A DNA stretch of 64,000 nt, from the IMG/VR virus record IMGVR_UViG_3300047160_036265; one strand, given 5' to 3'. The DNA is from a virus. Position numbers and translations under genes: made by a program. Below are positions 33,656 through 33,739 of this stretch, piece after piece. Each line of letters begins with the position of its first letter. The stretch's first letter is position 1. The notes beneath the pieces were generated by a model that did no database searches, was not told where the DNA came from, and saw nothing but the letters and a program-made list of their open reading frames with translations.

Positions 33656-33739
33656 AATCGGCGGTGGGACTTGCACCCACGAGAGGTTTACACCTGCTGG
33701 TTTTGCAGACCAGTGCCTTCGCTACTCGGCCACGCCGAC
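33656..33739 (-). tRNA. class II (Ser/Leu-like body, long variable arm) tRNA with anticodon GCA
   Basis: Acceptor GUCGGCG/CGCCGAU, D-region GUGGCCGAGUAGCGAAGGCAC (compare tRNA-Ser GUGGCCGAGCGGUUGAAGGCAC), anticodon arm CUGGU-CUGCAAA-ACCAG, variable arm AGGU-GUAA-ACCU, T-arm GUGGG-UGCAAGU-CCCAC. Confidence 0.5.

Follow-up and report, generated by a model that had tools for sequence, protein, structure and literature searches.

We analyzed a 64,000-nt stretch of viral DNA (IMG/VR record IMGVR_UViG_3300047160_036265; hereafter, the window) with a tRNA gene at 33656–33739 in which a cysteine anticodon is combined with the long variable arm of a class II tRNA. All coordinates are positions in this window, and the structures were called with ARAGORN and the Rfam covariance models. 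The G+C content of the window is about 57%. ARAGORN lists 48 tRNA genes, every one of them on the minus strand, and the Rfam tRNA matches number 45. Four minus-strand tRNA genes found by Rfam (11401–11473, 29738–29809, 30830–30900 and 32245–32306) are absent from the ARAGORN list; therefore, the array holds more than 48 tRNAs.

The gene at 33656–33739 (minus strand) is a class II shaped tRNA-Cys(GCA). Read from 33739 to 33656, its sequence is GUCGGCG UG GCC G AGUAGCGA A GGC A CUGGU CUGCAAA ACCAG C AGGU GUAA ACCU CUC GUGGG UGCAAGU CCCAC CGCCGAU U. It measures 84 nt through the discriminator and was called by ARAGORN as tRNA-Cys(gca) of 85 nt. The Rfam tRNA model (RF00005) aligns with it from end to end at 52.1 bits (E-value of 2.6e-8 for the whole window), above the gathering threshold of 29 bits. 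In this alignment the GCA triplet (33704–33706; loop CUGCAAA, running on as A36-A37-A38) occupies positions 34–36, the arm is accommodated as inserted sequence within the variable region, and the U at 33656 is the discriminator (model position 71, equivalent to tRNA position 73). The anticodon, its loop and the arm AGGU-GUAA-ACCU had been described in an initial annotation made from the sequence alone, and all of them are present in the sequence and in the ARAGORN and Rfam calls. We found no register in which a different fold would bring another triplet to positions 34–36; both programs place GCA there.

The variable region (33681–33696; C-AGGU-GUAA-ACCU-CUC) is 16 nt long and is composed of one unpaired base on the 5′ side, a 4-bp stem, a GNRA tetraloop and three unpaired bases on the 3′ side ending with C48. 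It is therefore not of class I architecture, in which the variable loop has 4–5 nt. The other stems are a 7-bp acceptor stem closed by G1·U72, a 3-bp D stem, a 5-bp anticodon stem and a 5-bp T stem, giving a 7/5 branch. The T loop UGCAAGU (33669–33675) has G instead of U at position 55, and the D loop (33718–33727) contains AG, not GG. As the next gene, a tRNA-His with G-1, begins only 2 nt downstream, CCA is not encoded. In the minimum free energy (MFE) fold of the single sequence, the D and anticodon arms are not those of a clean cloverleaf, and we considered this fold uninformative beside the covariance-model and comparative evidence.

A second tRNA-Cys(GCA) was found by ARAGORN at 5515–5583 on the minus strand. 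It is short (about 69 nt), with G1-C72 and U73, and scores 38.4 bits with the Rfam model and 46.7 bits with a class I Cys model. Because its D arm is reduced and its score is weak, the long-armed gene may be the main Cys tRNA of the phage.

The long-armed gene is not an assembly artefact, since it was recovered identically from independent assemblies and samples. One identical copy lies in a different ENA assembly with 99.99% identity over 11 kb (L008), another was found in a metagenome scan (L145), and in two further loci (L153 and L159) the sole change is in the arm loop, from GUAA to GCAA. A search of IMG/VR with an exact 35-mer of the gene gave no match. A diverged homologue (L149) carries the arm C-GAGC-GGAA-GCUC-AUC, where all four pairs are swapped in a compensatory way and the loop remains GNRA; elsewhere only two D-loop bases differ. 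In an alignment of 16 long-armed GCA tRNAs every helix covaries, with double changes at all four pairs of the arm helix. The compensatory changes of L149 thus indicate that the arm is a helix under structural selection, although it may still be only a tolerated legacy. In three relatives with 83–86% DNA identity (L005–L007), the sequence stops or synteny breaks down short of the tRNA array, so that they are not informative on the Cys tRNA.

To describe the distribution of this tRNA we used a sequence pattern consisting of the D arm GGCCGAG..AAGGC and the CUGCAAA loop, which retrieved 110 loci from IMG/VR. Among 107 GCA tRNAs caught in this way, 32 are long-armed (83–93 nt, 16 unique sequences) and 75 are ordinary short ones. 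A stricter pattern applied to one genome per species (185,579 species) gave 21 hits, mostly located in dense tRNA arrays of up to 31 tRNAs per 8 kb; the array hits are in contigs of bacterial metagenome-assembled genomes from many phyla. The metagenome scan, which was restricted to the form with the G55 T loop, revealed 20 loci, including a second soil family (CGCCGAG..., 88 nt) within arrays of up to 32 tRNAs. An 89-nt long-armed example is also present in the cultured Xanthomonas jumbo phage XacN1, where it is annotated plainly as tRNA-Cys. We defined the group operationally by a 7/5 branch, GCA, U73, an arm stem of 3–4 bp and three or four unpaired 3′ bases ending with C48. The tRNA of the window has all these features and aligns with 15 IMG/VR members, with the members from genome arrays and soil, and with that of XacN1.

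The major determinants of cysteinyl-tRNA synthetase (CysRS) are U73 and the anticodon nucleotides G34-C35-A36 (PMC9976931), and the long-armed tRNA-Cys carries both. U73 was found in 15/16 long-armed and in 53/53 short phage tRNA-Cys (68/69 together), and the discriminators of the other isotypes are mainly different (G73 in 38/50 tRNA-Ser and A73 in 28/31 tRNA-Tyr). Bacterial tRNA-Ser conserve the pairs G1-C72 and G2-C71 (PMC9976931); the long-armed tRNA-Cys has G1·U72 and U2-A71 at these places and thus possesses neither pair, nor G73.

The geometry of the arm also differs between isotypes. In tRNA-Ser the arm stem has 5–7 bp in 63 of 81 genes, and a single unpaired 3′ base follows it in 58 of 81. 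The tRNA-Leu arm has a stem of 4 bp and two unpaired 3′ bases, and the tRNA-Tyr arm has 3 bp and three such bases. In the long-armed tRNA-Cys the stem has 3–4 bp (33/36) and is followed by three or four unpaired 3′ bases (28/36). The arm of the window gene, with 4 bp and three unpaired 3′ bases, is therefore not of the Ser type, and its base is Tyr-like. A comparison of the discriminator and variable arm with what seryl-tRNA synthetase (SerRS) and CysRS require had been proposed in the initial annotation; as judged from these nucleotides, the positions read by the synthetases point to cysteine.

The unusual T and D loops belong together. T loops with G55 are combined with A18 (AG D loop) in 42 of 43 unique tRNAs, and those with U55 with G18G19 in 1157 of 1165, which suggests that an A18-G55 contact takes the place of G18-ψ55. 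This covariation spans Met, Asn, Leu, Cys, Tyr, Pro, Ala, Lys and Phe tRNAs. Besides the long-armed gene (33669–33675 with 33718–33727), it was observed in the window at 4031–4101 and 33424–33497, and elsewhere in loci L140–L159, L014, L028, L054 and L060.

According to textbooks, a long variable arm occurs only in Leu, Ser, bacterial Tyr and Sec tRNAs. Canonical tRNA-Cys share with the window gene GCA, U73, the loop CUGCAAA, the 3-bp D stem GGCCGAG..AAGGC and the 7/5 architecture; they differ in having a variable loop of 4–5 unpaired bases instead of 16 nt with a 4-bp stem-loop, and they do not have the G1·U72 pair or the G55 T loop. The selC* tRNA-Cys, known from anaerobic bacteria, where it is encoded beside selB* and in some genomes is accompanied by a dedicated extra CysRS (Mukai et al., 2017; PMC5389517), likewise has a long variable arm, U73 and GCA (GCA or UCA being the criterion of that group). 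However, it is tRNA-Sec-like: its branch is 8/4, its long D stem bears a tetraloop and its anticodon stem has 6 bp, in contrast to the 7/5 branch, 3-bp D stem and 5-bp anticodon stem of the window tRNA. Allo-tRNAs are also class II molecules with the anticodon of a class I amino acid, but their acceptor branch of twelve base pairs is 8/4 or 9/3 (PMC5389517). Both selC* tRNAs and allo-tRNAs have Sec-like D arms, so that the window tRNA, with its 7/5 branch and 3-bp D stem, is of neither kind. The nematode class II nev-tRNAs, too, have anticodons of class I amino acids and reportedly decode an alternative genetic code for leucine. Allo-tRNAs and nev-tRNAs provide the model for the mischarging idea of the initial annotation. 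The window tRNA is set apart from allo-tRNAs and nev-tRNAs by its Cys acceptor-end identity and 7/5 branch.

Two ordinary class II isotypes were compared in the same way. Phage tRNA-Ser(UGA) has the class II shape and a nearly identical D arm, anticodon stem and T stem, whereas the Ser anticodon, G73, the G1-C72/G2-C71 pairs and an arm of 5–7 bp with one 3′ base are all missing from the window tRNA. Bacterial tRNA-Tyr resembles it in the one 5′ and three 3′ unpaired bases, in the short stem and in an anticodon only one base away (GUA vs. GCA); the main determinants of its synthetase (TyrRS) are A73 and U35, and the window tRNA has U73 and C35. The same design is seen in the tRNA-Cys of XacN1 (AP018399.1, 45202–45290), which combines GCA, U73, a short arm with a GAAA loop and unpaired 3′ bases, and belongs to a large phage tRNA cluster. 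It differs in its D arm (CCGGAG..AACGGG) and in that its T loop, UUCAAAU, is canonical, its CCA is encoded and its first pair is G1-C72. The XacN1 publication does not mention the arms of its tRNAs. A search of the open-access literature, which cannot prove novelty, found no description of a long-armed tRNA-Cys with a 7/5 branch. Thus, the 7/5 class II tRNA-Cys is apparently undescribed, and examples of it sit unremarked in public records.

Based on these comparisons, the gene at 33656–33739 is probably a functional cysteine tRNA, a member of a recurrent subclass from phages and tRNA arrays in which the 7/5 architecture is joined to a short class II arm. It would be transcribed together with its neighbors in the minus-strand array and excised by the host RNase P and 3′ processing, and CCA, not being encoded, would be added enzymatically. 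Charging with cysteine could be performed by the CysRS of the host or by the compact enzyme that the phage encodes 22 kb away, through U73 and G34-C35-A36. As a class I enzyme, CysRS comes to the acceptor stem on its minor-groove side and leaves the variable region exposed to the solvent. Given this mode of binding, and given that CysRS also charges the long-armed selC* tRNA-Cys (PMC5389517), a long arm need not hinder the enzyme, and the arm, pointing to the solvent, would be tolerated. The charged tRNA would then be delivered by EF-Tu, which the phage encodes as well, and would read UGU and UGC as cysteine. Ordinary cysteine decoding is the most likely role of the long-armed tRNA.

The compact CysRS (404 aa) is encoded at 56106–57320 on the minus strand. 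It was recognized by the Pfam family tRNA-synt_1e (302 bits) and by TIGR00435 cysS (333 bits, vs. 207 bits for MshC) and aligns with PDB entry 8qhp. It keeps a catalytic domain and, at the C terminus, the anticodon-binding motif, and its CP insertion and helical bundle are shortened. Its nearest cellular relatives are cyanobacterial (about 40% identity), and no record matches its exact sequence.

Besides the Cys gene, an extra arm was found in a Trp tRNA of the same array. As reported in the initial annotation, the gene at 22909–22991 (minus strand) has the anticodon CCA and the additional arm GGC-CUUCGAC-GCC, and an ordinary tRNA-Trp(CCA) is present at 26127–26200 (minus strand; 65.1 bits in Rfam). 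Both were called by ARAGORN. The MFE structure of the long tRNA-Trp (−33.1 kcal/mol) is, like its ARAGORN structure, a five-arm cloverleaf with the loop CUCCAAA, A1:U72, G73, a 5-bp D stem, a 6-bp anticodon stem and a 7/5 branch; the ordinary gene agrees with it in A1:U72, G73 and anticodon loop. The long tRNA-Trp is not among the matches of the general Rfam tRNA model, and its best match in the clan is tRNA-Sec (RF01852) owing to the long D and anticodon stems. It is not a tRNA-Sec, as the score of 41.4 bits is below the 47-bit cut-off, the branch is 7/5 and not 8/5, and the anticodon is CCA and not UCA. The tRNA-Trp marks CCA, G73 and A1:U72, all of them present, argue for Trp identity. No homologues of this gene were recovered, and two relatives found through EF-Tu (L160 and L161) stop or diverge before it; a further long-armed tRNA-Trp was encountered in IMG/VR locus L075. 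At 21298–21996 (minus strand), about 900 nt downstream of the long gene at 22909–22991, there is an open reading frame for a mini protein of 232 aa similar to tryptophanyl-tRNA synthetase (TrpRS), which matches Pfam tRNA-synt_1b and TrpRS structures in the PDB. It has the HIGH and KMSKS motifs, is without most of the anticodon-binding domain and scores 97 bits with TIGR00233 trpS (cut-off 177).

The core of the long-armed tRNA-Cys is Ser-like, having the C11-G24 D stem common to tRNA-Ser and a class II profile, and the view of the initial annotation that a class II, Ser-type body carries a Cys anticodon was borne out in this respect. With isotype covariance models (Ser, class I Cys and Tyr) that we built from phage and array tRNAs, the gene scored 59.7 bits as tRNA-Ser, 56.6 bits as short class I tRNA-Cys and 48.4 bits as tRNA-Tyr; as these scores are close and the training set of the Cys model is biased by the search pattern, they cannot decide identity, and a nearest-neighbor test of the core was dropped for the same bias. 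The gene is the top match of the Ser model in the window, while true tRNA-Ser score 66–87 bits and other long-armed GCA tRNAs 58–73 bits. BLAST neighbors in 50,697 annotated phage records were only tRNA-Ser. The nearest are genuine tRNA-Ser(UGA); that of Ruegeria phage V12, for example, has 77% identity over positions 7–77, with identical anticodon and T stems.

The near-identity of the D region to that of tRNA-Ser, also pointed out in the initial annotation, is true but not diagnostic. The D arm GGCCGAG..AAGGC occurs as well in the 75 ordinary short tRNA-Cys of the IMG/VR pattern search and in a chromosomal tRNA-Cys of Fervidicola ferrireducens (L127). A tRNA-Tyr from soil arrays has a D arm identical to that of the window gene at 18 of 19 positions and the same unusual T loop UGCAAGU.

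The Ser-like core suggests that an identity switch in a class II tRNA, whether Ser-like or Tyr-like, gave rise to this tRNA. The anticodon would have changed to GCA and the discriminator to U, the Ser acceptor pairs would have been lost, and the arm would have been shortened and acquired a Tyr-type base. Alternatively, an arm could have been grafted onto a tRNA-Cys. An origin from tRNA-Tyr in particular (GUA to GCA, A73 to U73) is attractive by the arm geometry, D arm and T loop, but it is contradicted by the higher Ser score and by the tRNA-Ser found as BLAST neighbors.

Several observations weigh against a cysteine tRNA at this locus. The Ser model scores slightly higher than the class I Cys model, and all neighbors among annotated phages are tRNA-Ser. 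U73 is also present in 10 of 50 phage tRNA-Ser, so that by itself it would not block SerRS, an enzyme that disregards the anticodon and depends mainly on the arm and tertiary shape (PMC9976931). The G1·U72 pair is unusual for tRNA-Cys (14 of 16 relatives have G-C), and the first acceptor pair matters for some CysRS (PMC5389517). The G55 T loop and the D loop without GG are non-canonical, though they covary, and the case for cysteine charging is drawn from identity nucleotides only. In a rival reading, SerRS would recognize the Ser-like core and long arm, and the tRNA would bring serine to UGU and UGC codons, either exclusively or along with cysteine (dual identity). Such mistranslation would agree with the top score on the Ser model, with the occurrence of U73 in some phage tRNA-Ser, with the C11-G24 D stem, with the anticodon and T stems shared with tRNA-Ser(UGA) of cultured phages, and with the proposal that allo-tRNAs with U73 are Ser acceptors (PMC5389517). 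We nevertheless regard it as unlikely, because G73, G1-C72 and G2-C71 are absent, the arm is shorter than in 63 of 81 tRNA-Ser, and three unpaired 3′ bases instead of one place it in a different class of arm orientation. In addition, U73 is nearly invariant in the long-armed GCA family, as in ordinary tRNA-Cys, and true tRNA-Ser all score higher on the Ser model. The tRNA also fills the sole Cys slot of arrays that already have up to four tRNA-Ser: in 43 loci with at least 15 tRNAs, which, as a caveat, are partial contigs chosen for containing a GCA tRNA, there is exactly one GCA tRNA each (long in 26, short in 17, both in none), accompanied by normal Ser and Tyr tRNAs. The suggestion of the initial annotation that such hybrids are mischarged with serine at Cys codons or have non-decoding roles was thus unsupported, given the presence of U73 and GCA, the absence of the Ser acceptor pairs and G73, the 4-bp arm and the conserved design.

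It could also be supposed that the extra arm marks the Cys and Trp tRNAs for the compact synthetases of the phage, or shields them from tRNA-cleaving defences of the host, and so provides an insulated supply of charged tRNA. The class I isotypes with extra arms in the window are indeed Cys and Trp, the window encodes both a CysRS with shortened CP insertion and bundle and the 232-aa TrpRS-like protein, the arm is under structural selection, and a precedent exists in the dedicated CysRS* that accompanies the selC* tRNA-Cys (PMC5389517). This idea seems improbable, since tRNAs of this design are present in numerous arrays and phages whose flanks, short as they are, show no CysRS; when the 110 IMG/VR loci were searched by tblastn for the phage CysRS, no match was obtained, which is a weak result for loci of only a few kb. 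Moreover, the phage CysRS retains a normal anticodon-binding motif, its gene is 22 kb away from the tRNA gene, and the long tRNA-Trp is a singleton. Less probable still is a decaying gene, that is, a duplicated class II tRNA with a mutated anticodon that is out of use in translation. The G1·U72 pair, G55 and the D loop without GG could be taken for signs of decay, and the window contains many odd tRNA-like genes. Against this stand the identical sequence in independent soil samples, the diverged homologue with compensatory changes in the arm, the consistent G55/A18 covariation across isotypes, the good Rfam score (52.1 bits), and the wide distribution of a family with conserved identity marks. 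A functional cysteine tRNA remains the preferred explanation.

The element that carries this gene is a huge soil phage. Its DnaE-like gene product is 100% identical to a protein on a metagenomic contig of 669,797 bp, the nearest annotated phage is an uncultured huge phage of 484 kb (39% identity), and close relatives of the window derive from soil metagenomes. No relatives of the DnaE-like neighbor were found in IMG/VR, and megablast detected nothing in annotated phages that matched the tRNA region. Three other translation genes lie amid the tRNA array on the minus strand, encoding LysRS (211–1563), EF-Tu (24683–25861) and a homologue of ribosomal protein S12 (38627–39010). EF-Tu, identified by Pfam and a homologue search, shares 76–78% identity with the EF-Tu proteins of cellular bacteria from soil, of which those with a name are Gemmataceae; this hints that the host of the phage is possibly a planctomycete. 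Genes for a Ro60/TROVE protein, an NAD-dependent ligase and a polynucleotide kinase are present in the window as well.

It should be added that the window contains several other odd RNAs, all on the minus strand. Just downstream of a tRNA-Met and the long tRNA-Trp, a 48-nt segment at 22774–22821, GGAAUGUUGGCUUAGAAGCAGCCACCAUCUAAGGAG, matches the large-subunit rRNA model (27.9 bits, E-value of 2.7e-4). It resembles the GTPase-associated center of 23S rRNA, where L11 binds (helices 43/44), and might serve as a mimic of rRNA or as a leader with a regulatory function. Three tRNAs (3681–3769, 12743–12835 and 40859–40952) have 15–24 extra nt inside the anticodon loop with their anticodon stems intact; the inserts are intron-like, although far below the size of group I introns. 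Of the three, ARAGORN detects a single one, as Gln(ttg) of 93 nt, and misses the other two. A 69-nt tRNA at 40444–40512 has the anticodon AUU (called Asn, with A34 unmodified in the gene) and is found in the same place in the relatives L005–L008 at 83–86% DNA identity. The 88-nt tRNA-like gene at 14864–14951, called Leu(gag), has a long arm and reaches 40.4 bits in the permissive mode of Rfam only; its acceptor stem CGGGGCG and 5′ half resemble the tRNA-Pro genes of the window. Two tRNA-Arg-like genes (51222–51513) are located directly downstream of the Ro60/TROVE gene (51570–53588). In bacteria, the partners of Ro proteins are Y-like RNAs, which include a tRNA-like module, and the two genes may be plain tRNAs or belong to an RNA of this type.

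Long forms of other class I isotypes were observed outside the window, in L134 and L165/XacN1 (Lys, Asn, Thr and Gly, 86–91 nt), in L074 and L014 (Thr, 85 nt) and in L075 (Trp, 85 nt). Several have an arm of the kind found in the long tRNA-Cys, with 3–4 bp and often a GNRA loop as well as three unpaired 3′ bases. Conversely, short tRNA-Leu of 74–77 nt without an arm are present in L121 and L125. The class I/class II shape thus seems generally plastic in tRNAs of phages and arrays. It can be hypothesized, as a rather unlikely extension, that the extra arm is a functional tag. Huge phages and mobile arrays would then have re-shaped several tRNAs in parallel (long Cys, Trp, Thr, Lys, Asn and Gly; short Leu) and, with the compact synthetases and EF-Tu of the phage, would maintain an insulated channel that survives shutdown or cleavage of host tRNAs and synthetases. 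If so, the long-armed tRNA-Cys would be a natural identity-switched class II tRNA with recognition rules of its own.

The known exceptions to the textbook rule (selC* tRNA-Cys, allo-tRNAs and nev-tRNAs) have informed the understanding of synthetase recognition and have served as a source of parts for engineering the genetic code. The 7/5 tRNA-Cys, in which the core is Ser-like and the arm of Tyr type, is a clear exception to the class I/class II rule; being conserved and common in the tRNA arrays of phages and in mobile ones, it amounts to a natural experiment in which tRNA identity is switched between the class II and class I systems. It also poses an annotation problem, since isotype models would label such a gene Ser-like, at odds with its Cys anticodon. 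Serylation of this tRNA would mean that phages deliberately mistranslate cysteine codons; if it is cysteinylated, as is predicted, CysRS would be indifferent to a long arm in the normal 7/5 frame.

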